This document shows, in pieces, positions 1-32,738 of a stretch of 33,490 nt of DNA; the stretch's first letter is position 1; each line of letters opens with the position of its first letter. Position numbers and translations under genes: made by a program. This DNA comes from a virus. Lineage: Duplodnaviria > Heunggongvirae > Uroviricota > Caudoviricetes. The notes beneath the pieces are model-generated. The model was not told the origin of the DNA and ran no database searches. It was given only the letters and a program-made list of their open reading frames with translations. The stretch lies in the IMG/VR virus record IMGVR_UViG_2667527975_000008. The stretch is one strand, 5' to 3'.

Positions 1-1362
1 ATGTTTAAACCGGAACTCCTTTCCCCGGCGGGAACGCTGAAAAATATGCGTTACGCTTTCGCTTATGGCGCAGATGCTGTTTATGCGGGCCAGCCGCGTT
101 ACTCCCTGCGTGTGCGCAACAACGAATTCAACCACGAAAATCTTCAACTCGGCATTAACGAAGCCCACGCGCTGGGGAAAAAGTTTTATGTCGTGGTCAA
201 CATTGCACCGCACAACGCCAAGCTGAAAACCTTTATCCGTGACCTGAAACCGGTGGTGGAAATGGGGCCGGATGCGCTGATTATGTCCGATCCAGGGCTG
301 ATTATGCTGGTGCGTGAGCACTTCCCTGAAATGCCGATCCATCTCTCGGTACAGGCTAACGCCGTGAACTGGGCGACGGTGAAATTCTGGCAGCAAATGG
401 GCCTGACCCGCGTGATCCTCTCTCGCGAACTGTCACTGGAAGAGATTGAAGAGATCCGCAATCAGGTGCCGGATATGGAAATCGAAATCTTCGTTCACGG
501 CGCGCTGTGCATGGCCTACTCCGGTCGCTGCCTGCTCTCTGGCTATATCAACAAGCGCGACCCGAACCAGGGCACCTGCACCAACGCCTGCCGCTGGGAG
601 TACAACGTCCAGGAAGGGAAAGAAGATGACGTTGGCAACATCGTACACAAGTACGAGCCGATTCCGGTGCAAAATGTTGAGCCGACGCTGGGTATCGGCG
701 CGCCAACCGACAAAGTGTTTATGATCGAAGAAGCCCAGCGTCCGGGCGAGTATATGACCGCGTTTGAAGATGAGCACGGCACTTACATCATGAACTCGAA
801 AGATCTGCGCGCCATCGCCCATGTTGAACGCCTGACCAAAATGGGCGTGCATTCGCTGAAAATCGAAGGCCGTACCAAATCTTTCTACTATTGCGCACGC
901 ACCGCGCAGGTTTACCGTAAAGCTATCGATGACGCCGCTGCGGGCAAACCGTTCGATACCAGCCTGCTGGAAACTCTGGAAGGTCTGGCGCATCGTGGCT
1001 ATACCGAAGGTTTCCTGCGTCGTCATACTCACGACGATTATCAGAACTACGAATACGGTTATTCAGTTTCTGACCGCCAGCAGTTTGTTGGTGAGTTTAC
1101 CGGTGAGCGCAAGGGGGACCTCGCGGCGGTAGCGGTGAAAAATAAATTCTCCGTTGGCGACAGCCTTGAGCTAATGACGCCGCAAGGCAACATTAACTTT
1201 ACCCTTGAGCACATGGAAAACGCCAAAGGTGAAGCTATGCCGGTCGCACCAGGCGATGGTTATACTGTGTGGCTCCCGGTGCCGCAGGATCTTGAGCTAA
1301 ATTACGCGCTGCTGATGCGTAATTTCTCCGGGGAAACCACGCGTAACCCCCACGGTAAGTGA
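1..1362 (+). CDS. yegQ: Peptidase U32 family protein YegQ (TrhP, tRNA hydroxylation), host gene
   Basis: 453-aa ORF matching E. coli YegQ in length and sequence character (Cys-rich U32 motifs); it precedes cyaR as in E. coli K-12. Confidence 0.85.
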   Translation: MFKPELLSPAGTLKNMRYAFAYGADAVYAGQPRYSLRVRNNEFNHENLQLGINEAHALGKKFYVVVNIAPHNAKLKTFIRDLKPVVEMGPDALIMSDPGLIMLVREHFPEMPIHLSVQANAVNWATVKFWQQMGLTRVILSRELSLEEIEEIRNQVPDMEIEIFVHGALCMAYSGRCLLSGYINKRDPNQGTCTNACRWEYNVQEGKEDDVGNIVHKYEPIPVQNVEPTLGIGAPTDKVFMIEEAQRPGEYMTAFEDEHGTYIMNSKDLRAIAHVERLTKMGVHSLKIEGRTKSFYYCARTAQVYRKAIDDAAAGKPFDTSLLETLEGLAHRGYTEGFLRRHTHDDYQNYEYGYSVSDRQQFVGEFTGERKGDLAAVAVKNKFSVGDSLELMTPQGNINFTLEHMENAKGEAMPVAPGDGYTVWLPVPQDLELNYALLMRNFSGETTRNPHGK

Positions 1363-8294: not shown

Positions 8295-8888
8295 CTATTT
8301 GTCCCGGTTGGCTAAGGGATGACACAATTTATTCTTTGTCGCTGATGAGGGGAATTTTTTATAGAGCGTGGACAGGCCAATATCAAAAATCAGCGCCACG
8401 CGTTGACGTGATTCACCCGCAGCCAGCAACCGTCCTGCCTGTTCCCACTCACTCGCGGTGAGCTTCGGACGTCTGCCACCAATACGACCTTTAGCTCTGG
8501 CCGCTTCCAGTCCGGCGCGTGTCCGCTCGACAATGAGTTCTCGTTCCATTTCAGCCAGGGCACCCATCACATGAAAGAAAAAACGCCCCATCGGCGTGCT
8601 GGTATCAATAGCATCCGTCAGGCTGCGAAAATTAACGCCGCGTTCGCGCAGTTCCTCAACCAGAATGACCAGATGCCGCATACTACGCCCCAGCCTGTCC
8701 AGCTTCCAGACCACCAGTGTATCCCCCTCCGATAATGTCCTGAGCAGTTTTTTCAGTCCCGGTCGGTCGGACTTAGTGCCGCTGATTTTATCCTCAAAAA
8801 TCAGCTCACATCCTGCGCACTCCAGCGCGTTACGCTGCAATTCCGTGTTCTGGTCATTTGTTGACACGCGTACATAGCCAATAAGCAT
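8295..8888 (-). CDS. Serine recombinase / DNA invertase (Gin/Cin/Pin/Hin family) for tail-fibre switching
   Basis: Product MLIGYVRVSTNDQNTELQRNAL...VVWKLDRLGRSM...MGRFFFHVMGALAEMERELI...GGRRPKL with C-terminal HTH; the catalytic Ser motif and near-identity to Gin over the N-terminal 140 aa are recognisable by eye. Start taken at the second Met; the track ORF starts 6 nt upstream (8894). Confidence 0.9.
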   Translation of the reverse strand: MLIGYVRVSTNDQNTELQRNALECAGCELIFEDKISGTKSDRPGLKKLLRTLSEGDTLVVWKLDRLGRSMRHLVILVEELRERGVNFRSLTDAIDTSTPMGRFFFHVMGALAEMERELIVERTRAGLEAARAKGRIGGRRPKLTASEWEQAGRLLAAGESRQRVALIFDIGLSTLYKKFPSSATKNKLCHPLANRDK

Positions 8889-8943
8889 GAGCATCCCCCT
8901 GAATAAAAACCGGAGATGATGCCAGTTGCCCGTTATCTCTGCA

Positions 8944-8969
8944 TTTTCATAAACGTTGGTTTGGGAGAA
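8944..8969. repeat. Invertase crossover site, left (gix/cix-like 26 bp)
   Basis: ttttcataaacgttggtttgggagaa; reverse complement TTCTCCCAAACC-AA-CGTTTATGAAAA. The half-site TTCTCCCAAACC is shared, in inverted orientation, with the site at 10830..10855. Confidence 0.75.
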
Positions 8970-9308
8970 GCGGCTAAAAGGAATGTAGGGACAGGGGCGA
9001 ATCAGATACCTGATATGGGTAGCTTCACGCTTTCTGTTTCAGGTACTGGATATCAAAAATTACCATCAGGTTTTATTCTTCAGTGGGGCTCAATCGGCGC
9101 ACCAGGCATTGCACAGGATGTAGTAACCCATTTCCCGATTGCATTTCCAAACAGATGTCTGCGTGTTTTGGTCTCACAAGACTACACACCAGATAGCGGG
9201 GCTGTTGGTTATATTGCCTGTGCAGGTTTTAGTCCCGACCCGGTTAAATTTATATCCAGAGCCAGTACTCCTGGCCTCGGCGCTTCATTTTTAGCGTTAG
9301 GCTGTTAA
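8970..9308 (+). CDS. Alternative tail-fibre C-terminal segment (Hv'), silent in this orientation; no own start codon
   Basis: Open frame runs through the left crossover site (..FINVGLGE|[12 protein letters not shown]...). It would fuse to the constant part of H (..LAYLGLGE) after inversion. The track's N-terminal Met at 8916 is an ORF-caller artefact. Confidence 0.65.
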
Positions 9309-9329
9309 TTTAGCTATATGGAGTGAAAA

Positions 9330-9770
9330 ATGAATTACATATATTCCGCGACTACAAACTCTTTCTATCCGCTGGAGATGAAAGAGGATTACACTCAAGC
9401 TGACTCATGGCCAGATGATGCTGTTGAAGTTGATGAGCAAGTGTATATTGAGTTTTCCGGATTACCGCCGAAAGGAAAAATCCGTATCGCTGGAGAAAAT
9501 GGTTTTCCTGCATGGTCTGAAATTCCACCACCAACACATGAGGAACAAATTGCTGCAGCCGAATTGGAGAAGCAGCAATTGATTAATCAGGCCAACGATT
9601 ATATGAACAGTAAACAATGGCCTGGTAAAGCGGCTATTGGTCGTCTGAAAGGTGACGAACTGGCGCAATATAATTTGTGGCTGGATTACCTGGACGCACT
9701 GGAACTGGTCGATACTTCCGGTGCGCCAGATATTGAATGGCCTACGCCTCCGGCAGTTCAGGCCAGATGA
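9330..9770 (+). CDS. Tail fibre assembly protein, alternative copy (tfa', paired with Hv')
   Basis: 146-aa ORF with the conserved N-terminal Tfa region (YIYSATTNSFYP...); converges on and overlaps the 3' end of the opposing tfa. Confidence 0.8.
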   Translation: MNYIYSATTNSFYPLEMKEDYTQADSWPDDAVEVDEQVYIEFSGLPPKGKIRIAGENGFPAWSEIPPPTHEEQIAAAELEKQQLINQANDYMNSKQWPGKAAIGRLKGDELAQYNLWLDYLDALELVDTSGAPDIEWPTPPAVQAR

Positions 9771-10344
9771 CATCCGGCGCGGTGCTGGTATCTGTTGCCG
9801 TCACCGCGTCAATGTAATCCAGCACAGCGTTAAGCCGGGTTGTTTCTGCCTGCGTCAGTTTACGTCCGGCCTGCAATTTCAGTTGAATCAGACTGATGGA
9901 AGCCATTGCAGTATCAATCAGCGACTGGCGCTGTGCTTCTGCTGCATCTACTGCGGCGCTATGCTGTGCCTCAGTATCGGTCACCCATTTCTCACCATCC
10001 CATTTATCGTATGGCGTTAATGGGGCGATAGTGGTTGTATTTTCAGGGTAATCACCCGGAGCGGTGATTTCTTTTGATTCTCCTGTTTTGGTGCTATAGA
10101 CCGTTTCACCGCGATGGTCTGGCACATATTCCCATGAGTTAAAATCTGCAGAACGGCAGATTGCATAACCAGCCTTATGTGTGCCAGGGGCATCTAAACA
10201 GGAACATGCCGGAATGCCGACACCAACGGCAAGATATTCATTTGAAGTGGAAATATATTCCCGTGTTTCACCATCATAGTTATAAACGGTAATATCCCCT
10301 GCCTTTGTTGCAATGAGCTCACTATTTAATATTGCTTTATGCAT
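9742..10344 (-). CDS. G: Tail fibre assembly protein (G-like), in the expressed orientation
   Basis: 200-aa ORF directly downstream of H with stop/start overlap; the C-terminal region resembles that of tfa' (..TSTAPDVIWPELP vs ..TSGAPDIEWPTPP). Confidence 0.8.
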   Translation of the reverse strand: MHKAILNSELIATKAGDITVYNYDGETREYISTSNEYLAVGVGIPACSCLDAPGTHKAGYAICRSADFNSWEYVPDHRGETVYSTKTGESKEITAPGDYPENTTTIAPLTPYDKWDGEKWVTDTEAQHSAAVDAAEAQRQSLIDTAMASISLIQLKLQAGRKLTQAETTRLNAVLDYIDAVTATDTSTAPDVIWPELPEA

Positions 10345-11669
10345 CAGGCTGCCCTCACGATATAGTTAAATGCAATATTACGCGGACGCGTTTCTGAGGC
10401 TGCGGCACCTAAACCAGCCACTGATTGTTTATATGTTTTAAAGGTTCCATAATCCGGTGCTGGTAATCCGGCATCGTTTGTGTTTCCTCTTTTGATAATG
10501 TCAGTGCCACTATTTACCCAGCTTTCATCAAAATAGAAATTAATCGTTGCATCAGTCACAATCGTGGATCTTGACGGTAATCCATGAGCATGATCCTCCG
10601 TTGCATACCCCTGAATACTTAAAATAGAGCGACCTGTATCAATCCCCCGCCCGTCATCCCAGCCACGAATAAACTCACCACGTAAATCAGGCAATTTATT
10701 TGTCGGGTAAACTTTTGCCAGTTCCGGGTATTCTTCAGCAGAAAAAGCTGCACCATTGCATTTCAGCCAGCCTGTTGGCGGAGTGGCTGAAGGCCACGGA
10801 ACAGGGACACCAACAGGTAATGCAGAGCCTTCTCCCAAACCAAGGTATGCGAGAAGACCGGCAACATCCTTTCCACTCAAATGAGTCAGCGTCTCATCCA
10901 GTGGCTGCTTACCTGACAGCGCATTGTTAATGGTGGTACTGAATTTCGGGTCATTGTTAATGGCTGCGGCAATTTCTTTCAGTGTGTCCAGCGTGGCTGG
11001 CGCACCGTTAATCAGAGCGGTAATAGCGGCCTGAACAAACTCAGTGGTCGCAATCCGCGTGGTGTTATTTCCTGCGGCAGGCGTCGGCGCTTTTGGTTCT
11101 CCGGTAAATGTCGGATTATGTTTCTGTGCATACTGGGTATGAGGATCCTGTGCGGCAATGTGGTTTCTCATCTGGTCATCCACATACAGCCTTAATTCCA
11201 GGACTTCATCATCCACGTATTTACGGGTCGCCAGTACCACCGACGGGTCGATTTTCAGCGTAATAGCTTCGGTATTCGTGACAACCAGAATCATGCGGAT
11301 AGTCTGGGTACGACCACTGCCTTCCTGCAACTGCGGTTTGTACGTTTCCGGGCAGTTCGCCACCGCAATGAGTACGCCTTCATCATCATAAAGCCCAATC
11401 TCACGGATCCAGAATCCGCCCTCGTTCTCAGGGATGATTTGCTCCGCAATAATCTGGCTCTGGTTGTTCGGGTCAACACTCAGAAGATTCAGCGGCGCGA
11501 TGCGTTTCTGGTTAATCAGTTTTGTCTGTGCCGGGTCTGGTGTCGGCAAGACACCATTCGCATCACCAACGGCCATTTGCGTCAGATTCAGCTTACTGCC
11601 GAGCATCGTCGCGTTAGCCAGCCGTGCTGCGCCCTGATTAGTCAGAATGGCGTAGTATTTCACTGTCAT
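10344..11669 (-). CDS. H: Tail fibre protein H (constant N-terminus plus invertible C-terminus)
   Basis: 441-aa ORF with the P2 gpH-like N-terminus (MTVKYYAILTNQGAARLANA...); the crossover site lies inside it at about codon 271. Confidence 0.9.
   Translation of the reverse strand: MTVKYYAILTNQGAARLANATMLGSKLNLTQMAVGDANGVLPTPDPAQTKLINQKRIAPLNLLSVDPNNQSQIIAEQIIPENEGGFWIREIGLYDDEGVLIAVANCPETYKPQLQEGSGRTQTIRMILVVTNTEAITLKIDPSVVLATRKYVDDEVLELRLYVDDQMRNHIAAQDPHTQYAQKHNPTFTGEPKAPTPAAGNNTTRIATTEFVQAAITALINGAPATLDTLKEIAAAINNDPKFSTTINNALSGKQPLDETLTHLSGKDVAGLLAYLGLGEGSALPVGVPVPWPSATPPTGWLKCNGAAFSAEEYPELAKVYPTNKLPDLRGEFIRGWDDGRGIDTGRSILSIQGYATEDHAHGLPSRSTIVTDATINFYFDESWVNSGTDIIKRGNTNDAGLPAPDYGTFKTYKQSVAGLGAAASETRPRNIAFNYIVRAA
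10830..10855. repeat. Invertase crossover site, right (inside gene H)
   Basis: ttctcccaaaccaaggtatgcgagaa, inverted relative to the left site; encodes LAYLGLGE in H. Confidence 0.75.
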
Positions 11670-14239: not shown

Positions 14240-14995
14240 TTAGTTGTAGCACTTCTCTATAATCTTCATACACTCCTCATGAGCTAAATCATGGCTGTCA
14301 AATTCTTTATTAAAAAAGAAGAAAAACGCCTTCTTAACCTGAGGAATTTCAATAAAAACAAATTCATCAACCTTATGAAAGAAATGAAAACTCTTGTTTG
14401 ATGTTTCAAAAACCATCAAAGAATTATGTTTTTTATCCTTCCATTTCGACATCAGATTGCGTCGCGATTTTCGTATAATCCTGAAGACATCCCCCGGCGT
14501 CGTATCGACATTCCCCCAAAACATTGCAACCGGGAAGTTTGCAAGAAACGGGATATAATCACCACCTTTATACCTGAGAAAGCGGTTCCGCAAATCCATT
14601 AATTGCAACTTAAAACCCATGTATTGCAACCACCATATGATGCAATCATACTCATAATCTGTTAACTCCTCCCCTCTCTTTTCCGTAAGAAATTTCTTCA
14701 GGTTATACTCAAACACTCCCAGCAAATCAGAATTGCACACTCTGCATGCTGGTACAGTGGCTTTAATGTAATGAGTTGACTGATTATTCTTTTTATTAAT
14801 TAAAGATTTTTCAGCATTTGACTCAAAGGCCCACTGAGGAATAATGTGCTCACGAGTAATATCGTCAGAACTCCCGCATAACACACATATATCAGCATTA
14901 TGGTCAGCAATAATACAATCCATAACTTTCTTTTGAGAATGCTTTACTCTTTTTCTCAAAATGGAAAACTTTTTATCCACAAACACCCGTCTCAT
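14240..14995 (-). CDS. HNH-motif nuclease-like cargo protein inserted between S and V (homing endonuclease or defence nuclease)
   Basis: 251-aa ORF, visibly AT-rich (about one-third GC in hand-counted 60-mers). Contains C-x2-C ... E-H-I-I-P ... N ... C-x2-C-N (CVLCGSSDDITREHIIPQW...CRVCNSD), the beta-beta-alpha-Me/HNH signature. Start overlaps the S stop by 4 nt (ATGA). Confidence 0.6.
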   Translation of the reverse strand: MRRVFVDKKFSILRKRVKHSQKKVMDCIIADHNADICVLCGSSDDITREHIIPQWAFESNAEKSLINKKNNQSTHYIKATVPACRVCNSDLLGVFEYNLKKFLTEKRGEELTDYEYDCIIWWLQYMGFKLQLMDLRNRFLRYKGGDYIPFLANFPVAMFWGNVDTTPGDVFRIIRKSRRNLMSKWKDKKHNSLMVFETSNKSFHFFHKVDEFVFIEIPQVKKAFFFFFNKEFDSHDLAHEECMKIIEKCYN

Positions 14996-21192: not shown

Positions 21193-21365
21193 TGTCAGGA
21201 GTCCTGAATAGTGATTAGAGGAGTCACATGTCGGCATCAGTTTCCCGACGATGCGCATCCTCCGCCATCAGTCCCGGATGGCTTATCACTGACACAACAG
21301 CACCTTAGCGAATCGCGGGGCGCGACTCAGTAGCCTTGCCGTGTATTCATCACGGCGAGGTATTC

Positions 21366-23138
21366 ATGACCATCACCACAGACACCACTCTTTTACACGA
21401 CCCGCGTCGTCAGGCGGCGCTGCTGTACTGGCAGGGATTTTCCGTGCCGCAGATTGCCGCCATGTTGCAGATGAAACGCCCGACGGTGCAGAGCTGGAAA
21501 CAGCGCGACGGCTGGGACAGCGTTGCCCCCATCAGCCGTGTCGAAATGAGTCTGGAAGCGCGACTGACCCAGCTCATCATCAAACCGCAGAAAACCGGCG
21601 GTGACTTCAAGGAAATTGACCTGCTCGGACGCCAGATTGAACGACTGGCACGGGTCAACCGTTACAGTCAGACCGGCAACGAGGCAGACCTTAATCCGAA
21701 CGTTGCTAACCGCAACAAAGGCGGGCGGCGCAAACCGAAAAAGAATTTTTTCAGTGACGAGGCCATCGAAAAGCTGGAGCAGATTTTCTTTGAGCAGTCT
21801 TTCGACTACCAGTTGCACTGGTATCGCGCCGGGCTTGAGCACCGCATCCGCGATATCCTGAAATCCCGCCAGATTGGCGCAACGTTTTATTTTTCCCGCG
21901 AGGCGCTGCTGCGCGCCCTGAAAACCGGTCATAACCAGATTTTTCTGTCAGCCAGTAAAACGCAGGCGTATGTGTTCCGCGAATACATCATCGCCTTTGC
22001 CCGTCTGGTTGACGTTGACCTGACCGGTGACCCGATTGTCCTGGGCAATAACGGCGCAAAACTGATTTTTCTCGGCACCAACTCCAACACCGCGCAGAGC
22101 CATAACGGCGACCTGTACGTCGACGAGATTTTCTGGATCCCGAATTTTCAGGTACTGCGTAAGGTGGCATCAGGTATGGCCTCACAGAGTCACCTGCGCT
22201 CGACCTATTTCTCCACCCCGTCCACGCTGGCGCACGACGCCTATCCGTTCTGGTCCGGTGAACTGTTCAACCGGGGACGCGCCAGCGCCGCTGAACGCGT
22301 GGAAATCGACGTCAGTCATAACGCACTTGCCGGTGGGCTTCTCTGTGCGGACGGCCAGTGGCGGCAGATTGTCACCATTGAGGACGCCCTGAAAGGTGGC
22401 TGCACGCTGTTCGACATTGAGCAGCTTAAACGCGAAAACAGCGCCGACGATTTTAAAAACCTGTTCATGTGTGAATTTGTTGACGACAAGGCGTCGGTAT
22501 TCCCGTTCGAGGAGCTGCAACGCTGCATGGTCGACACGCTGGAAGAATGGGAAGACTATGCGCCGTTTGCCGCCAATCCGTTCGGCTCCCGCCCGGTATG
22601 GATTGGTTACGACCCGTCACACCGTGGCGACAGTGCCGGATGCGTGGTGCTGGCACCGCCGGTGGTGGCCGGTGGCAAATTCAGAATACTTGAGCGTCAC
22701 CAGTGGAAAGGCATGGACTTTGCCACCCAGGCTGAATCCATCCGCAAACTCACCGAAAAATATAACGTTGAATACATCGGTATTGATGCCACCGGCCTCG
22801 GTGTCGGCGTGTTCCAGCTCGTGCGCTCGTTCTATCCCGCCGCGCGCGATATCCGCTACACGCCGGAAATGAAAACCGCAATGGTGCTCAAGGCAAAAGA
22901 CGTTATCCGCCGAGGCTGTCTGGAGTATGACGTCAGCGCCACCGACATCACCAGCTCGTTTATGGCTATCCGCAAGACCATGACCAGCAGCGGACGCAGC
23001 GCCACCTATGAGGCCAGCCGCAGCGAGGAAGCCAGCCACGCCGACCTCGCCTGGGCGACCATGCACGCCCTGTTAAATGAGCCACTCACCGCCGGTATCA
23101 GCACTCCGCTGACATCCACCATTCTGGAGTTTTACTGA
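21366..23138 (+). CDS. P: Terminase ATPase (large) subunit P
   Basis: 590-aa product from MTITTDTTLLHDPRRQAALLYWQG...; divergent from O as in P2. Confidence 0.9.
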   Translation: MTITTDTTLLHDPRRQAALLYWQGFSVPQIAAMLQMKRPTVQSWKQRDGWDSVAPISRVEMSLEARLTQLIIKPQKTGGDFKEIDLLGRQIERLARVNRYSQTGNEADLNPNVANRNKGGRRKPKKNFFSDEAIEKLEQIFFEQSFDYQLHWYRAGLEHRIRDILKSRQIGATFYFSREALLRALKTGHNQIFLSASKTQAYVFREYIIAFARLVDVDLTGDPIVLGNNGAKLIFLGTNSNTAQSHNGDLYVDEIFWIPNFQVLRKVASGMASQSHLRSTYFSTPSTLAHDAYPFWSGELFNRGRASAAERVEIDVSHNALAGGLLCADGQWRQIVTIEDALKGGCTLFDIEQLKRENSADDFKNLFMCEFVDDKASVFPFEELQRCMVDTLEEWEDYAPFAANPFGSRPVWIGYDPSHRGDSAGCVVLAPPVVAGGKFRILERHQWKGMDFATQAESIRKLTEKYNVEYIGIDATGLGVGVFQLVRSFYPAARDIRYTPEMKTAMVLKAKDVIRRGCLEYDVSATDITSSFMAIRKTMTSSGRSATYEASRSEEASHADLAWATMHALLNEPLTAGISTPLTSTILEFY

Positions 23139-24172
23139 TGAGCAAGAAAAAAGGGAAAACACCGCAACCTGCGGCAAAAACAATGACCGCCAGCGCCCCG
23201 AAAATGGAGGCATTCACCTTTGGTGAGCCGGTGCCGGTACTCGACCGCCGTGACATTCTGGATTACGTCGAGTGCATCAGTAACGGCAGATGGTATGAGC
23301 CGCCGGTCAGCTTTACCGGTCTGGCAAAAAGCCTGCGTGCTGCCGTGCATCACAGCTCGCCGATTTACGTTAAACGCAATATTCTGGCTTCAACGTTTAT
23401 TCCGCATCCGTGGCTTTCTCAGCAGGATTTCAGCCGCTTTGTGCTGGATTTTCTGGTGTTCGGTAATGCGTTTCTGGAAAAGCGTTACAGCACCACCGGT
23501 AAGGTCATCAGACTGGAAACCTCACCGGCAAAATATACCCGCCGTGGGGTGGAGGAGGATGTTTACTGGTGGGTGCCGTCCTTCAACGAGCCGACAGCCT
23601 TCACGCCCGGCTCCGTGTTTCACCTGCTGGAGCCGGATATCAATCAGGAGCTGTACGGCCTGCCGGAATATCTCAGCGCCCTTAATTCTGCCTGGCTGAA
23701 TGAATCAGCCACACTGTTCCGCCGCAAGTATTACGAAAACGGCGCTCATGCCGGATACATCATGTACGTCACTGATGCCGTGCAGGATCGCAACGATATC
23801 GAAATGCTCCGCGAAAACATGGTGAAGTCGAAAGGCCGCAACAACTTTAAAAATCTGTTTCTCTATGCCCCACAGGGGAAAGCCGACGGCATTAAAATTA
23901 TCCCCCTCAGTGAAGTGGCAACGAAAGACGATTTTTTTAATATCAAAAAAGCCAGCGCCGCTGACCTGCTGGACGCGCACCGCATTCCCTTTCAGTTGAT
24001 GGGCGGCAAGCCGGAGAACGTCGGGTCACTGGGTGATATTGAGAAAGTGGCAAAGGTCTTTGTCCGCAATGAGCTTATCCCGCTACAGGACAGGATCCGC
24101 GAGATAAACGGCTGGCTCGGTCAGGAGGTCATCCGATTTAAAAACTACTCACTGGACACTGACAACGACTGA
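23138..24172 (+). CDS. Q: Portal protein Q
   Basis: 344-aa ORF whose start overlaps the P stop. Confidence 0.9.
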   Translation: MSKKKGKTPQPAAKTMTASAPKMEAFTFGEPVPVLDRRDILDYVECISNGRWYEPPVSFTGLAKSLRAAVHHSSPIYVKRNILASTFIPHPWLSQQDFSRFVLDFLVFGNAFLEKRYSTTGKVIRLETSPAKYTRRGVEEDVYWWVPSFNEPTAFTPGSVFHLLEPDINQELYGLPEYLSALNSAWLNESATLFRRKYYENGAHAGYIMYVTDAVQDRNDIEMLRENMVKSKGRNNFKNLFLYAPQGKADGIKIIPLSEVATKDDFFNIKKASAADLLDAHRIPFQLMGGKPENVGSLGDIEKVAKVFVRNELIPLQDRIREINGWLGQEVIRFKNYSLDTDND

Positions 24173-24341: not shown

Positions 24342-24360
24342 GTGCTTTCCCCGCCTCGCC
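24342..24360. other. cos site (19-nt cohesive-end sequence)
   Basis: gtgctttccccgcctcgcc is the reverse complement of the P2 cohesive end GGCGAGGCGGGGAAAGCAC as I recall it. Confidence 0.8.
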
Positions 24361-24597
24361 CGCCCGCTTCATGGGGCGGTTTTAATGCAGTTGCATAGAT
24401 ACTATGGATGCGCACCAGCTCTGACCGCAAGCAACCGAAACTGGCATCCCCGACGCATGCAAAAACATTCACTTGTTGCATGCACGGCTTATTTAATGAC
24501 AAATCAACTTAAATTTACGAAGTCTACAGGCATGGATTCTTTGCTAACATGATAGGCTTACGAGAATTATCGAGCCTATTTTTCACCGGAGCAATGT

Positions 24598-25539
24598 ATG
24601 CAAGGTAAAGTTGACGAACCGCAACCAAATGAGATTATTTCGGAGTTTGGATACTATCCAGTAGAAGTTAACATTGAGACTGAACAATTTTCTTTGCGTA
24701 CTTTACCCAATCTCATTGAGAAAGTGGAACATGTTAACAATGATAAAAACGTTGTTAATGGTTGGATATACCCTGGAAATAAAAAGGTATATAATCTCAA
24801 TGGTGGTATATCCACAATGCCTTATAGTCACCGAGTATTCGGCATGCCCAAAACACACACACTAAAATTAAAAAATACATCCTCGTTAGAAACTCTCAAC
24901 TTTGTTGTGTGGTGTCTATCTTTTTTCAAGGGTATAAGATTGACAACCACTGACGCTGGTTTTCTTGATGCAACCACTATCAAGCCCACTAAGTTAACCG
25001 ACTTTATTCTCGTTGGATGCTCTGAAAAAGAAGTAATAGAGCTCGCACTTAACTATATAAAAGAAAAACAAAAAGATGAACGTTCCATTAAAAGAATAGC
25101 TGCGGTGATACATTCCCTATTCCTGTCACATAACCCACTATACCTTTCCTTTGAGAAATTCCAGTATCTTTATATGGCTCTTGATTGCTGTTTTGCTATA
25201 GCATGGGACGAAAGGGATAAAGTCATTAAAAAGAAAAAACCATCTCATCAAAATAGAGTATATTGGATGTGCGAAAATTACGGTATAAAAATCCCGTCAT
25301 GGGCAACAGATGAATGTAATGTTTCAGTTATACGCAATGATAATTTTCATGAAGCCATTTTTAATGGGCAACCGCTTGGTTTTTCTAGTATCAACGATTG
25401 TCAACATGGTAGCGATATATTGCTACAAATGCAGGCTCTGGTGTGTCGTTTACTAGCGGCAATACTCTCTGTAAATGATCGTAAATATATCGCATCTACA
25501 ATCAACTCGATAGAGTACCGTTCATTAAAATTAACTTAA
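24598..25539 (+). CDS. Hypothetical cargo protein in the tin/old-position hotspot; possible HEPN-like RNase motif
   Basis: 313-aa AT-rich ORF with an SD (ggag) upstream; no family recognised. Contains R-N-D-N-F-H (residues about 246-251; nt 25333..25350), which fits the R-[N]-x3-H pattern of HEPN domains. Confidence 0.5.
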   Translation: MQGKVDEPQPNEIISEFGYYPVEVNIETEQFSLRTLPNLIEKVEHVNNDKNVVNGWIYPGNKKVYNLNGGISTMPYSHRVFGMPKTHTLKLKNTSSLETLNFVVWCLSFFKGIRLTTTDAGFLDATTIKPTKLTDFILVGCSEKEVIELALNYIKEKQKDERSIKRIAAVIHSLFLSHNPLYLSFEKFQYLYMALDCCFAIAWDERDKVIKKKKPSHQNRVYWMCENYGIKIPSWATDECNVSVIRNDNFHEAIFNGQPLGFSSINDCQHGSDILLQMQALVCRLLAAILSVNDRKYIASTINSIEYRSLKLT

Positions 25540-25569
25540 TGCTAACGCCTCACTTCGTTCGTTGTTCAA

Positions 25570-25608
25570 CCCCGCCAGCACTGAAAACATGTTTCATTGC
25601 TGGCGGGG
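25570..25608. terminator. 39-bp imperfect palindrome; probable bidirectional terminator between convergent cargo transcription units
   Basis: ccccgccagca...tgctggcgggg arms (11 bp) around an internally palindromic loop (aacatgtt). Confidence 0.45.
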
Positions 25609-25612
25609 TTCT

Positions 25613-25765
25613 CTATCGTCTGCGTGGTGGCGGCGCAAGGCTGGACTGACCGATATAGTTAAGCTGTTCGTAATTATCCCTGACTATTTCGGCACACCCG
25701 ACTAGCTCATCGGGCGTCAGATTTTCGTTGACCATAATCTGCTGTAAACGGTGAACAATGGCCAT
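25613..25765 (-). CDS. Possible small ORF (50 aa) in a GC-normal stretch inside the hotspot
   Basis: ATG..TAG frame MAIVHRLQQIMVNENLTPDELVGCAEIVRDNYEQLNYIGQSSLAPPPRRR, below the 60-aa track cutoff; weak SD; its composition differs from the flanking AT-rich genes. Confidence 0.25.
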   Translation of the reverse strand: MAIVHRLQQIMVNENLTPDELVGCAEIVRDNYEQLNYIGQSSLAPPPRRR

Positions 25766-25859
25766 CAACCTGACACTTTTGGTGTTATATGTGGTATCTC
25801 ACATGAGATTACTGACCAAGGTGCATCTTGGTTGACTCATTTCATATCCATCCACACCA

Positions 25860-26540
25860 CTACATCTTTATTGCATATTTATTAAAAGACGCCCAGTTCA
25901 ACAAAAAAACATTATTCATATACCATTCAATATAATTTTTATTTTTAGATTGACTGTCAAGTAGCACACAAACATCAACCTGTTTATCAATCAATTTTGA
26001 AATATAAACCACAAACTCAACACTCGAATATCTCTTTGTGCCTAGCAAATATAATATTTCATCTGACAAATAATTAGACTCATGTGAAAAGACATTATCA
26101 TTTAACAAAATCAATCCGCCAATCGAGTCATTTAAATCCAAAACATCCTTTGTTGCATTTATTTGCTTATTAGCTTCCTTAACTACCTTTGTTTTAATAT
26201 TTTCATAAGCAAAGTTTATTATATCATTTCTAAATCGCTTTGAGTCTGGGTGTCTTTTTATCAACTCTTCTAAATGAATAGCACCATGCCAGTTTTTTGC
26301 AAGCCAACTATCTGTTTTAACCAACTCATTCAGTTTATCATTGACATTCTTGACCCTGTCAGAAAAAAGACTTTTCATCTCCAAAATTATCTTTTTATTA
26401 TCAATAAGATAATCTGCCATCTTGCGATTCTGACCATCCTTCATCCGGAACTTATGATGAATATCATCAATAGAAATCCCTTTTTCATGCTCAACAATGA
26501 ATCTCTTAATATTGTTTTCTAATTCGCTGTATTGTTTCAT
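25860..26540 (-). CDS. Hypothetical cargo protein (226 aa), downstream partner of the small DUF2158-like gene
   Basis: Very AT-rich ORF, Lys/Asn-rich; no motif recognised; lies 27 nt downstream of the preceding small ORF on the same strand. Confidence 0.5.
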   Translation of the reverse strand: MKQYSELENNIKRFIVEHEKGISIDDIHHKFRMKDGQNRKMADYLIDNKKIILEMKSLFSDRVKNVNDKLNELVKTDSWLAKNWHGAIHLEELIKRHPDSKRFRNDIINFAYENIKTKVVKEANKQINATKDVLDLNDSIGGLILLNDNVFSHESNYLSDEILYLLGTKRYSSVEFVVYISKLIDKQVDVCVLLDSQSKNKNYIEWYMNNVFLLNWASFNKYAIKM

Positions 26541-26567
26541 ACTTTCCCCCGTGAATTTTATTGTGAT

Positions 26568-26762
26568 TCACTTACGTGGACGACACAGCATACCACTTTT
26601 ACTCTCTGCTATTTCCAGTAAATCAATGGAGAATGACTCCTCGTGCAAAACTCCTTCTTTATCATGCCAAATACATTTAGCATGAGTCTCAGTAGAGTCA
26701 GATACAGTCATTTTAAATCCACCGCTTTTCAAACAAACAACATCTGCAGGCTTTAACATTTT
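26568..26762 (-). CDS. Small protein, DUF2158/YodC-like (about 64 aa)
   Basis: MLKPADVVCLKSGGFKMTVSD... resembles the N-terminal pattern of YodC-family small proteins; GGAG lies 6 nt upstream of this ATG. The track ORF (to 26843) is probably over-extended. Confidence 0.45.
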   Translation of the reverse strand, partial: KMLKPADVVCLKSGGFKMTVSDSTETHAKCIWHDKEGVLHEESFSIDLLEIAESKSGMLCRPRK

Positions 26763-26886
26763 TGTCTCCAACATTTTTAAGTAATGCATTATAACATAAT
26801 GATATTGACGTAGATTTAATGCATGCAACCATATAAAAAACAATCAATTACAGTCAAAACTGCTTAATACTGTATAGATGAGATCA

Positions 26887-29166
26887 TTACTCAAATTGAT
26901 GCCAAAATCCCGGCCACTCATCAGCGACCGGATACGTGAATTTTTTCCCGTCATAATTTACGGTCGCGCCACGCGCCAGCGCCTCAAGCTCCCATCGCTG
27001 CGGCCTGATACCGTTCTGAGCAAGGTCAACGCGGATACGGGTGATTTGCAATCGTTCAGACCGGCTCAGTCTGGCCGATGGTGCAATTTCATACGGTTTT
27101 AACGGGCTTCCATTTCTTTGCTGACGGTTTGGTCTTCTCAGGCCGTGTTTTAATGCGCCCCTGAGCGCCCTCACGACCTCCGGGTCATTCCATTCGATAA
27201 CACCGTCATCAACCAGATTAAGCACTGCTGCGGCGTGCTCAGAAGGCGTGGAAGCCGGTAACGAAGTATCACCACCAGTAAGCTTTCCACAGTTATTGAC
27301 AGGACTCCGAGGCGCGGCGATGCCGCTTTTTAAAGTCAAAGGCTCAACGACCGGAACTTTCGGAACAATGCGCCAGTCCGTCGTTCTGGTGATATGAATA
27401 TGACGCGCGCCGAGATGCGGCGCGTAAATGCCGACCACTCTCTCGACTTCTTCCTCGTACTCGTTAACTTCATCCGACGGGCTACGGGCAACCCTGACAG
27501 TCTGACAATCGCGCGGGACATTTGCCCCACCCTGCGCGCTGATATACAACGCAAAATCACCACTGTCTGCGGCGGCGCGTGCAGCCTCGACGCGTTCGTC
27601 AAACTCATCAGCAATGCTGACGCCGCGAGGCAATTTGCGTAGTTCACGGTAAGCGCCCATTGTCGGCAGGCCAACCGTTTTAAATTGCGGGATACGCCAC
27701 GTTGACGCCCATGCGGTAACAGCCGCTGCAGTGTCTTTCAGCGGCCTGCCGGTATCGTTATCGAGCTGACCATCCAGTGCATAGCCGTCGATGTTTTTTG
27801 AGATGTATTTCGCGATATACCCCGCAGCACCGCCCCGGTTAAGGTGTTTTGCCTGAAAACGGTTTCGCGCAGCTCCTCTTTCGTCGCCATCCTCTTTGAG
27901 TGCGTAGCGACGCATGATTTCGATAATCTGGTTACGCTGGCGCGGATTACAAAAAAGCATCATATGCCAGTGCGGCGTTCCGTCGTGGTGTGGCTCGACG
28001 ACACGCAAACCGTAGACCTGTAAATCATTATCCTTGAATGCCGTGCGCATCAGGCTCCAGATATGGCAGAGATAACGCTGCGCATCCTTTGGATTAAATG
28101 CCTCATCGTTCCAGCCGTGATTTAGCTGGACGGTTTTACTTTCGCCTTTTCCGACCTGACGTGTCGGGTGATACTTTGACGGCGCGGTCAGCGTGATAAA
28201 CATCCCCACATCACCCTCTGCTGCGGCGTAACGCTCAATACCGGCAATGGTGTTCATCAGCTCCATCCGGCGAATTTCAGGATTAGAAATACTGCCCATC
28301 ACCTTACTGATAAGGTCGATGCGCTCGCCGGTTTCCCTGTTTTCAAGGTCACACGATTTAAGAAATTCCAGATTTGCCTGGCGGCGTGCACGTACATCAC
28401 GAATGGCATGTTTACTGGCATAAGGAGAACGGTCTTTATTCACCTCCCCGACAGCAATCAGTAACGCCTCATGCCAGCGCATACGCTGGCCTTTAAGCTG
28501 ATGAGTCCACCACTCATCGTTAAACAGACGGGCAATGGCAGAATATGCCTGCCTCGTGGTCATCTGTCCTTTACGGTATTTTTTCCAGTAGAGAGGGGAA
28601 ATATTGAAAGCTCGTGCAGCGCCAGCAACATGACCATACAGGTGATCCTGAGCCTCATCCGTAAACAGTGATTCTTTTTCGCCATGCGCATCCACCCAGG
28701 CATCGCTGAGTTCCTCATACATCATGAAAAGCTGCGATGAGATACGGGCGGCAAACTTTTTCAGCTCCTTGTCATTCATTCCCGGCAGGCGCGCATAGTG
28801 GTCACGCTCTGCCAGAAACAGCAACGACGCGTCGGTGTTCATTTCATGGCGCTGATTCACACGCTCAATGCGCGGCCATAAACGACGCTGAAAAGTGGAT
28901 GTGAGGAAATAAAACCCGTGCACCGGGCTTTTATTGCGCCGGATGTAGTCATAGCGTGAAGTAAACAGCGAGCGCAAAAAGTAAGGCAGGCGGTTAATCG
29001 TGGATAAAACACCTTGCACCTGACGCATCTCGTCACGTGTAAGGGGTCTTTCGCGCCCGACGGCCTCGCGTGGCGCGTTCCATGCATAAGCACCGGTAAA
29101 CGTCTTACCGGTGCCTGCGGCAAATGCTGACGGAGGGACAAAACGCCCGGAGGCTTTAACGACCAT
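26887..29166 (-). CDS. A: Replication initiation protein A (rolling-circle nickase)
   Basis: Product from MVVKASGRFVPPSAFAAGTGK...; large ORF downstream of B/orf80-83. Confidence 0.9.
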   Translation of the reverse strand: MVVKASGRFVPPSAFAAGTGKTFTGAYAWNAPREAVGRERPLTRDEMRQVQGVLSTINRLPYFLRSLFTSRYDYIRRNKSPVHGFYFLTSTFQRRLWPRIERVNQRHEMNTDASLLFLAERDHYARLPGMNDKELKKFAARISSQLFMMYEELSDAWVDAHGEKESLFTDEAQDHLYGHVAGAARAFNISPLYWKKYRKGQMTTRQAYSAIARLFNDEWWTHQLKGQRMRWHEALLIAVGEVNKDRSPYASKHAIRDVRARRQANLEFLKSCDLENRETGERIDLISKVMGSISNPEIRRMELMNTIAGIERYAAAEGDVGMFITLTAPSKYHPTRQVGKGESKTVQLNHGWNDEAFNPKDAQRYLCHIWSLMRTAFKDNDLQVYGLRVVEPHHDGTPHWHMMLFCNPRQRNQIIEIMRRYALKEDGDERGAARNRFQAKHLNRGGAAGYIAKYISKNIDGYALDGQLDNDTGRPLKDTAAAVTAWASTWRIPQFKTVGLPTMGAYRELRKLPRGVSIADEFDERVEAARAAADSGDFALYISAQGGANVPRDCQTVRVARSPSDEVNEYEEEVERVVGIYAPHLGARHIHITRTTDWRIVPKVPVVEPLTLKSGIAAPRSPVNNCGKLTGGDTSLPASTPSEHAAAVLNLVDDGVIEWNDPEVVRALRGALKHGLRRPNRQQRNGSPLKPYEIAPSARLSRSERLQITRIRVDLAQNGIRPQRWELEALARGATVNYDGKKFTYPVADEWPGFWHQFE

Positions 29167-29431
29167 ATGAGCCAAAAGCCTCTGAACAACGCTTGCTGAG
29201 TTGCTCAACCTGCGCGTTTAAATCAGCAAAAGACTTTGCGCTTCCGGTCAGAATATCGTGATGCATCAGGCCGGAAACGAGCTGGCTTAATTTCGGGTAA
29301 TAACCAACCACCGCCAGCCATTCCTGACCGGCGTTTTTACCACTTTCCGCTCTCTTTTTCTCGTGGAGAATAAACTGAAAGCTGTCACTGGTAACGACAT
29401 AACGTTCGCCAATTTCAATACGAATACTCAT
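29156..29431 (-). CDS. P2 orf83-like early protein
   Basis: 91-aa ORF in the conserved position between orf82 and A. Confidence 0.6.
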   Translation of the reverse strand: MSIRIEIGERYVVTSDSFQFILHEKKRAESGKNAGQEWLAVVGYYPKLSQLVSGLMHHDILTGSAKSFADLNAQVEQLSKRCSEAFGSYGR

Positions 29432-31724: not shown

Positions 31725-32738
31725 ATGGCAATCAAAAAACTCGATGATGGTCGATATGAAGTGGACATCCGCCCTACTGGACGTAATGGAAAACGCATCC
31801 GTAGGAAGTTTGATAAGAAAAGCGAAGCTGTCGCTTTCGAGAAATACACGTTGTACAACCACCACAATAAAGAATGGCTATCAAAACCAACAGACAAACG
31901 ACGTCTGTCGGAACTGACACAGATCTGGTGGGATTTAAAGGGTAAACACGAAGAGCATGGGAAATCTAATCTTGGAAAAATTGAAATCTTCACAAAAATA
32001 ACGAATGACCCATGCGCATTTCAAATCACGAAATCCCTTATCAGCCAGTACTGCGCCACCCGAAGAAGTCAGGGTATTAAACCTTCGAGTATCAATCGTG
32101 ATTTAACATGTATTAGCGGCATGTTTACAGCCCTGATTGAAGCGGAGTTATTCTTTGGTGAGCACCCTATCAGAGGGACAAAGAGGCTTAAGGAGGAAAA
32201 ACCAGAAACAGGCTATCTCACACAGGAAGAAATTGCCTTACTGCTTGCAGCACTTGACGGCGACAATAAAAAGATTGCGATTCTTTGCCTGAGTACAGGA
32301 GCACGTTGGGGAGAAGCAGCTCGTTTGAAAGCAGAAAATATCATCCATAACCGCGTCACGTTTGTTAAAACGAAAACAAACAAACCACGCACCGTCCCGA
32401 TCTCAGAGGCTGTTGCCAAAATGATCGCGGATAACAAACGAGGTTTTTTATTCCCTGATGCTGATTACCCTCGCTTCAGACGAACAATGAAAGCAATAAA
32501 ACCGGATTTGCCAATGGGGCAAGCCACACATGCACTAAGGCACAGCTTTGCCACTCATTTCATGATTAATGGAGGAAGTATTATTACGCTACAACGGATA
32601 CTAGGTCACACGCGGATTGAGCAAACGATGGTTTACGCTCATTTTGCGCCAGAGTACCTTCAGGACGCCATTTCTCTTAATCCGCTAAGAGGTGGTACTG
32701 AGGCCGAGAGTGTCCACACAGTGTCCACAGTAGAGTAA
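31725..32738 (+). CDS. int: Tyrosine integrase
   Basis: 337-aa ORF with the C-terminal R..H-x-x-R..Y catalytic region (HALRHSFATH...MVYAH); adjacent to att. Confidence 0.9.
   Translation: MAIKKLDDGRYEVDIRPTGRNGKRIRRKFDKKSEAVAFEKYTLYNHHNKEWLSKPTDKRRLSELTQIWWDLKGKHEEHGKSNLGKIEIFTKITNDPCAFQITKSLISQYCATRRSQGIKPSSINRDLTCISGMFTALIEAELFFGEHPIRGTKRLKEEKPETGYLTQEEIALLLAALDGDNKKIAILCLSTGARWGEAARLKAENIIHNRVTFVKTKTNKPRTVPISEAVAKMIADNKRGFLFPDADYPRFRRTMKAIKPDLPMGQATHALRHSFATHFMINGGSIITLQRILGHTRIEQTMVYAHFAPEYLQDAISLNPLRGGTEAESVHTVSTVE

Follow-up and report, generated by a model that had tools for sequence, protein, structure and literature searches.

P2-like prophages hold exchangeable genes between their cohesive-end site (cos) and the replication gene A, and each such locus raises the question of what its cargo does and how many systems it comprises. 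We asked this of the interval at positions 24362-26886 of IMG/VR virus record IMGVR_UViG_2667527975_000008, a stretch of 33,490 nt (hereafter, the window) that is a P2-like prophage. A description made from the letters alone (the original prediction) had taken this interval for a candidate novel anti-phage system of three genes whose products could not be placed in any family: ORF313, which encodes a 313-amino-acid (aa) protein on the plus strand, and a convergent minus-strand unit for a small DUF2158-like protein and a 226-aa protein, ORF226. All three open reading frames (ORFs) were present where they had been reported. We found that ORF313 and DUF2158-ORF226 are separable modules, and we favor, with moderate confidence, the view that they are two independent lysogenic-conversion cassettes, each a candidate phage-exclusion module of a known effector kind.

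Two low-GC slots between cos and gene A

The left border of the island is an exact copy of the P2 cos 19-mer, the cohesive-end sequence GGCGAGGCGGGGAAAGCAC, at 24342-24360 on the minus strand. The number of chance matches expected in shuffled sequences was 0, and the annotation of P2 (NC_001895) has a matching cosR feature. The terminase gene gpP (21336-23138, plus strand) and the portal gene Q (23138-24172, plus strand; annotated as a phage portal protein), which is the backbone flank on the cos side, head towards cos. The backbone gene A (26887-29208, minus strand; annotated as a replication endonuclease in locus L002) heads towards cos from the opposite side, and its stop codon at 26887 marks the right border. 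Between these borders lie ORF313 on the plus strand and, on the minus strand, a 51-aa ORF, ORF226 and the DUF2158 gene. The guanine-plus-cytosine (GC) content of the island was 36.5% (36.0% in ORF313 and 29.8% in ORF226) as opposed to 54.5% in the rest of the prophage (53.3% in gpA and 52.8% in gpQ), which bears out the original description of an AT-rich island in a backbone of more than 50% GC. The ORFs are real genes and not chance ORFs, since ORF313 has 261 homologs, down to ~44% identity and with 45 invariant columns, and ORF226 has 347 profile matches.

A backbone-like segment of 259 bp (25542-25800; 49.4% GC) separates ORF313 from the minus-strand operon. Wphi (gp92 region), Peduovirus P2 isolates and Yersinia phage P37 all share this junction, with nucleotide identities of 82-87%, regardless of the flanking cargo; the P2 reference genome is without the gp92-like segment. 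The interval is a gpA-cos cargo hotspot with two low-GC slots split by this conserved junction. In Yersinia phage VB-YPM-4, the block 24361-25800 was present at 93.6% identity without DUF2158 or ORF226, and a DUF3850-type gene occupied the A-side slot. Because the block from cos through ORF313 to the junction is kept in this phage, and because backbone homology picks up again at 26906, inside gene A, slot 1 would extend over about 24362-25541 and slot 2 over about 25801-26905. The junction may also serve as a homology anchor for the separate swapping of the two slots.

The junction contains two features of its own. The first is a conserved 51-aa ORF (25613-25768, minus strand), the last gene of the A-side transcription unit, which is Wphi gp92-like, matches phrog_11386 (7.6e-26) and is annotated in NZ_CM129873; the Prokaryotic Genome Annotation Pipeline (PGAP) names its product "meiotically up-regulated 80 protein". 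The same ORF was also present alongside different cargo in loci L003 and L015. The second is a 43-nt inverted repeat at 25568-25610, between the convergent stop codons, which was detected as a self reverse-complement BLAST match. Folding of the region 25540-25640 gave a hairpin with a minimum free energy of -48.5 kcal/mol (z -6.2), and none of 200 shuffled sequences was equally stable. Since no clear U-tract was seen at the hairpin, we only infer that it is a probable bidirectional terminator. The 51-aa ORF, the hairpin and the backbone-like segment that splits the island had all escaped the original prediction.

Comparison of the interval among related phages and genomes confirmed that its low-GC cargo is exchangeable, with alternative genes in otherwise conserved P2-like genomes (loci L003, L015, L016, L017 and L018). 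Among 5426 complete E. coli genomes, 2173 matched the flanks or the junction, and the whole island was found in only 27. ORF313 occurred in 93 of the genomes, 66 of which were without DUF2158-ORF226; DUF2158 and ORF226 occurred in the same 27 genomes and were always adjacent. Because these distributions differ (93 versus 27 of 5426), ORF313 and DUF2158-ORF226 constitute two modules, and the idea of a single system embracing all three genes was not upheld. In P2-type loci DUF2158 and ORF226 co-occurred throughout (27/27 E. coli genomes, 8/8 IMG/VR loci, 2/2 phage records and a Citrobacter phage), and in a set of 50,697 phage records they were found solely together, in 2 records. The Citrobacter P2-like phage retained DUF2158-ORF226 (75% identity) with a different cos-side gene. 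Other partners of ORF313 were a DUF3850 gene with a 68-aa ORF, or an ImmA/IrrE peptidase gene with a gene for a hypothetical protein. The gene order gpA-DUF2158-ORF226-ORF51-ORF313-gpQ was maintained in eight IMG/VR contigs. Beside DUF2158-ORF226 copies that were 98-100% identical, these contigs had ORF313 alleles either ~94% or ~79-80% identical to that of the window, which indicates recombination between the slots. Compared with each other, the two alleles are only ~80% identical. The cos-side slot of the Citrobacter phage (locus L014, 7305-8057, plus strand) holds an unrelated 250-aa ORF that had no Pfam match and shares its direction of transcription with gene A.

ORF313 and its candidate HEPN site

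ORF313 (24598-25539, plus strand) encodes an autonomous stand-alone protein. It is preceded by a leader or promoter region (24362-24597, plus strand) that moves with it in other phages and in which an extended -10-like element, TGCTAACAT, was found at 24542 by consensus match only. The annotation of P2 (NC_001895) and the survey of the P2 hotspot by Rousset 2022 (PMC9122126), which showed it to be an anti-phage hotspot and validated several systems from it, agree with the original statement that this interval holds tin and old in P2 and is a known site of anti-phage genes. The P2 genes old and tin occupy the same slot between cos and gene A as ORF313, P2 orf91 (DUF3850) fills slot 2, and the orientation and cos-proximal start of ORF313 are those of the P2 old-tin transcript (NC_001895). 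Like old and tin, ORF313 is AT-rich accessory cargo, and by analogy it would be expressed from the prophage. However, neither P2 Old (an AAA/OLD-family ATPase-nuclease of 586 aa, encoded by a 1761-bp coding sequence) nor Tin has any sequence or domain relation to ORF313.

The 261 homologs of ORF313 were from Enterobacterales, Aeromonas, Pseudomonas, Acinetobacter, Stenotrophomonas and Burkholderia. All are labelled hypothetical save one (P0070), whose UniRef name is "Apea-like HEPN domain-containing protein", and the protein of the window matched phrog_5937, a family of unknown function, at 2.4e-195. In an alignment of 59 sequences (to 44% identity), the 45 invariant columns included R246-N247-x3-H251-E252, within a block of the form (I/V)RN(D/E)xxHEA(I/L)F. 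An Rx4-6H motif is the signature of HEPN RNases, and such a motif was conserved in the 59 sequences. An AlphaFold2 (AF2) model of ORF313 (predicted local distance difference test 85; predicted template-modeling score 0.85) comprised an N-terminal α/β domain (approximately residues 1-155) and, C-terminal to it, a helical domain whose helix at residues 242-255 bears the RNxxxHE motif. When the model was compared with the PDB using Foldseek, the sole enzyme-like matches were three HepT-type HEPN toxins, and these were weak (template-modeling score 0.37-0.40). The N-terminal α/β domain matched nothing. A match to ribonucleotide reductase R2 in the PDB sequence-profile search was judged spurious. 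ORF313 probably works like a HEPN RNase.

Relatives of ORF313 outside this phage were found in the company of defense genes. A homolog in Providencia (50% identity) lies, in one strain, directly 3′ of a type I restriction-modification operon and a GmrSD gene, and an identical protein in another strain lies in an integrase-bounded island at ssrA/smpB, adjoining genes for DUF3800, AbiH and TIR proteins. An element of P. aeruginosa that carries DUF932 and ParB genes contains a homolog at a distance of ~3 kb from a Gabija-like OLD-TOPRIM/UvrD pair. A Burkholderia plasmid copy adjoins FRG and DUF4238 genes, an Acinetobacter plasmid copy sits among toxin-antitoxin (TA) modules, and the Aeromonas homolog is a solitary insertion. 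These contexts support a defensive role for ORF313.

In motif, helical domain and stand-alone habit, ORF313 resembles the single-protein HEPN abortive-infection (Abi) systems (HepS of Gifsy-1, ApeA and the AbiD/F/J-type proteins), which are prophage- or island-borne, stand alone, and combine an Rx4-6H motif in a helical domain with an extra domain. It differs from them in having no sequence or profile similarity to the HEPN families in Pfam, PADLOC or the PDB, and it bears only a weak structural likeness to HEPN toxins of solved structure. HepS both recognizes a phage protein and cleaves tRNA anticodon loops (PMC13043305), and it is the closest functional analog of ORF313 in the mechanism that we propose. 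On this model, ORF313 would act alone from slot 1, at the position and in the orientation of P2 old/tin; its N-terminal α/β domain would most likely be a sensor of infection and its C-terminal helical domain would most likely hold the HEPN-type RNase site. Upon infection by a competing phage, ORF313 would then cut RNA (tRNA, mRNA or rRNA), leading to translation arrest and abortive infection.

The DUF2158-ORF226 operon

The first gene of the two-gene operon in slot 2 encodes the DUF2158 protein. Called mechanically, its ORF extends over 26568-26843 (minus strand) and encodes 91 aa from a TTG. The true product is most likely a 63-aa protein that begins at the ATG at 26759 (26568-26759, minus strand), a start that we favor because it has a GGAG ribosome-binding site, because the PGAP and GenBank annotations agree on it, and because the exact sequence occurs on at least 1000 contigs. 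As the original prediction had proposed, this small protein is DUF2158-like: it matched Pfam PF09926 with 31.8 bits against a gathering score of 22.3 (E 1.2e-7), and its PGAP name agrees. The second gene, ORF226 (25860-26540, minus strand), follows after a gap of 27 nt; each gene has its own ribosome-binding site, and a promoter-like element lies 5′ of the first. This element, a perfect extended -10 (TGTTATAAT; 26788-26796, minus strand) in the 127-nt, 26.8% GC spacer that follows gene A, is a candidate operon promoter by consensus match only, as is a second promoter-like site, TTGACT-18-TATGGT, at 26857-26828.

ORF226 has few close relatives, with 26 sequences at ≥64% identity. When 1.8 billion representatives were searched with a profile, 347 relatives emerged, and a scan of species-representative genome contigs with the ORF226 alignment found none. 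In an alignment of 38 relatives (identity to ~21%), D43, E54, K56 and Q126 were the only invariant residues. The first three form a D...ExK signature, that of PD-(D/E)xK nucleases, and lie on adjacent strands of the model (residues 44-46 and 51-57); the model has a restriction-endonuclease-like α/β fold with a long helical insert (approximately residues 60-135) that parts the catalytic strands from the remaining sheet. On these grounds ORF226 is predicted to be a PD-(D/E)xK nuclease with a restriction-endonuclease-like fold. Matches below threshold to PF18742 (REase_DpnII-MboI) were obtained for 8 of the 38 relatives (best E 0.0011; P0147 scored 17.7 bits against a cut-off of 27), and neither ORF226 nor the 38 relatives matched a curated nuclease family above the Pfam threshold. 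Foldseek found nothing significant in the PDB for the ORF226 model. Matches of ORF226 to AbiJ_NTD4, tape-measure and RQC families (E 0.01-0.3) were rejected as noise, and those of its profile to PDB sequences (SepF and designed proteins) as spurious.

Four longer relatives of 520-739 aa (P0162, P0166, P0184 and P0205) carry the ORF226-like domain in a central position, some with an N-terminal Mrr_cat domain, of restriction-nuclease type, and/or a C-terminal SEC-C zinc motif. Their composition suggests that the family includes tandem-nuclease architectures. A relative with 40% identity is located between a CI-type repressor gene and a DUF4238 gene, beside the recombinase of another prophage; such a repressor-adjacent site is the typical position of genes expressed in lysogens (morons).

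ORF226 has the D...ExK signature and fold of PD-(D/E)xK effectors such as BsmI, DpnII/MboI-type restriction endonucleases, NucC of CBASS and systems identified by DefensePredictor, whose newly validated E. coli systems had PD-(D/E)xK as their most frequent domain. Unlike these defense effectors, it has no methyltransferase, cyclase or other known partner, its partner being the DUF2158 protein. We found no function for DUF2158 in the literature. The possibility that DUF2158 is a general backbone gene downstream of A was rejected, as it occurs only with ORF226. In our model, slot 2 would be transcribed downstream of gene A from its own promoter, DUF2158 first and then ORF226. The nuclease would be the effector, acting either on incoming phage, foreign or modified DNA, in the manner of a solitary restriction enzyme, or on the DNA of its own cell in an abortive response. 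The DUF2158 protein would be a regulator, an inhibitor or a specificity partner of ORF226, and its titration might release an abortive effector.

Candidate roles in defense and their alternatives

Odegrip et al. reportedly studied this locus in 2006 as the variable TO region. A record with 92% identity to the island, GenBank AM157369, is entitled "Bacteriophage P2-EC67 proviral ORF226 and ORF313" and has ORF73 annotated as well. In Table S5B of Rousset 2022 (PMC9122126), an ORF313 allele is listed as single-gene system #11 (218 occurrences), and ORF226 together with the 63-aa DUF2158 protein, near residue for residue, as system #63 (67 occurrences). The locus was therefore already catalogued, by deposit in 2006 and listing in 2022, and could not be called novel. 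The genes of P2-EC67 and of systems #11 and #63 are the same as those of the window, and these sources state no function, domain or test for them. The tables in which the same study gives its validated systems and the further ones that it tested (Table S2A/B) contain no peptides of ORF313, ORF226 or DUF2158, and a peptide search of the supplements of DefensePredictor and of a P. aeruginosa hotspot paper gave no match. Literature searches for the accession, the ORF names, DUF2158 and P2-EC67 turned up no study of function, which does not exclude a published test; the genes have apparently never been tested.

The genes share with the "3 hypothetical proteins" system of Rousset 2022, which protects against P1 (PMC9122126), a location in the P2 hotspot and products without predicted domains. 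Identity with that system was rejected, as peptides of all three proteins were not found in Table S2, which holds its sequences. No PADLOC match links the two sets of proteins, with the limit that the presence of models for that system in PADLOC 2.0.0 is unconfirmed.

Scans of the four window proteins against Pfam, PADLOC, PHROGs and NCBIfam gave only DUF2158 and PHROGs of unknown function. The profile and fold searches that had been proposed as checks thus returned DUF2158 and no significant Foldseek match for ORF313 or ORF226. The earlier impression that the proteins are unplaceable stands insofar as they match no PADLOC model and no Pfam family beyond DUF2158, and it gives way where ORF226 displays a PD-(D/E)xK signature and fold and ORF313 a HEPN-type RNxxxHE motif. 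With regard to defense, the original prediction was plausibly right, as the contexts of the relatives point in that direction. The layout of the island, its modularity, the conserved motifs, the fold class of ORF226 and the gene neighborhoods of relatives are direct results; expression in the lysogen, RNase and DNase activity, sensing by the N-terminal domain of ORF313, the part played by DUF2158 and phage exclusion itself are inferred.

A number of results weigh against two independent phage-exclusion cassettes built around a HEPN-type RNase and a nuclease. PADLOC-DB 2.0.0, which comprises known and candidate defense systems up to 2023, gave 0 matches for the four window proteins and 0 for 59 ORF313 relatives, and for 38 ORF226 relatives it gave only single weak matches, each to a different model. 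No phenotype is on record for either cassette. For ORF313, Foldseek returned no match at E≤0.001 and there was no sequence match in the PDB. Neither the 59 full-length members nor 5 isolated C-terminal domains matched Pfam, even at E≤10, and no described HEPN family (for example Pfam PF18739 or ApeA of PADLOC) was matched by them at E≤1-10. The HEPN assignment thus failed every profile test, and formal membership of ORF313 in the superfamily is unproven. With respect to independence, every E. coli-type P2 locus found to have DUF2158-ORF226 (27 genomes, 8 IMG/VR contigs and 2 phages) also had ORF313, a constancy that full independence does not predict. Lastly, no DUF2158 gene adjoined the ORF226 homolog of a Pantoea plasmid (64% identity), the prophage copy with 40% identity or homologs of greater divergence; the ORF226 fold as such hence does not require DUF2158 as an antitoxin.

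The last observation bears on the possibility that DUF2158-ORF226 is a TA or addiction module that stabilizes the prophage or its hotspot cargo and does not exclude phages. The operon is laid out like a type II TA pair, in that a small gene is followed after 27 nt by a gene for a protein of nuclease fold; the two genes co-occur strictly in P2-type loci, and TA modules are found around relatives of either family. However, the Pantoea, prophage and distant copies, which have no upstream DUF2158 ORF, show that the nuclease is tolerated without DUF2158, and a TA function and defense are not mutually exclusive. We therefore regard a purely stabilizing role as unlikely.

It is similarly doubtful that the cargo is not defensive at all and serves either the phage, in anti-defense, host takeover or as a replication or recombination accessory, or the fitness or virulence of the host. 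The same hotspot is known to carry partition systems and a cytolethal distending toxin as well, and 5 of 8 extra P2 systems cloned by Rousset 2022 were inactive on the panel used (PMC9122126); moreover, the PADLOC scans revealed no homology to any validated defense protein. Against this, ORF313 relatives recur beside restriction, Abi, TIR, Gabija-like and DUF4238 genes in unrelated non-phage elements, an ORF226 relative adjoins a repressor gene at the typical position of a moron, and the predicted nuclease active sites are strictly conserved.

A single tripartite system, in which ORF313 and the operon depend on each other (for instance, one sensing and the other executing), would explain why ORF313, in either of two divergent alleles, accompanies DUF2158-ORF226 in all 27 E. 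coli genomes, all eight IMG/VR contigs and both phage records, but is very unlikely given that 66 of the 93 E. coli genomes with ORF313 lack the operon, as do Yersinia and Salmonella phages that carry the gene, that ORF313 is found alone in Pseudomonas, Providencia, Aeromonas, Acinetobacter and Burkholderia, that the Citrobacter P2-like phage pairs DUF2158-ORF226 with a different cos-side gene, that ORF226 relatives stand alone, and that the two units are convergent and parted by a backbone segment with a strong hairpin.

Elsewhere in the window, a host Peptidase_U32 gene lies at the left end (1-1362, plus strand) and a phage integrase gene at 31725-32738 (plus strand), and the window therefore covers essentially the whole prophage plus one host junction. 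A resolvase/invertase gene (Resolvase and HTH_7 domains; 8295-8894, minus strand) adjoins an ORF for the tail-fiber tip (Gp53-like_C; 8916-9308, plus strand), which is followed by a tail-fiber assembly ORF (Caudo_TAP; 9330-9770, plus strand). The tip and assembly ORFs are on the strand opposite to the resident tail-fiber genes H (10344-11669, minus strand) and G (9742-10344, minus strand), and the region 8295-9770 looks like a Gin/Cin-type invertible host-range switch at the P2 Z/fun position. A second low-GC cargo gene, a 251-aa ORF at 14240-14995 (minus strand), lies among the tail genes at the position of P2 orf30, in a 1-kb bin of 41% GC with neighbors of ~52-58%. It had no Pfam or PADLOC match and is a further candidate, in a secondary P2 hotspot.

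The reading of two independent lysogenic-conversion cassettes may be carried further, as a tentative proposal that we consider possible but hardly probable. ORF313 would found an unnamed and widespread family of single-protein abortive-infection RNases in phages, plasmids and islands of Gamma- and Betaproteobacteria, with a highly divergent HEPN site and an unrecognized N-terminal sensor; DUF2158 would be the regulator of a new PD-(D/E)xK defense nuclease; and the one-sided linkage of the operon to ORF313 would reflect a functional dependence between otherwise autonomous modules.

Single-protein HEPN Abi systems and PD-(D/E)xK effectors are well established in prophage hotspots, and the two cassettes call for no conceptual change. 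On a small scale, the island illustrates clearly how the P2 hotspot is organized and its cargo exchanged, with two low-GC slots flanking a hairpin-bearing junction. If the proposed roles are confirmed, the anti-phage repertoire of P2-like prophages would gain two more families, of which ORF313 is spread far beyond E. coli, and DUF2158 would receive its first functional context.

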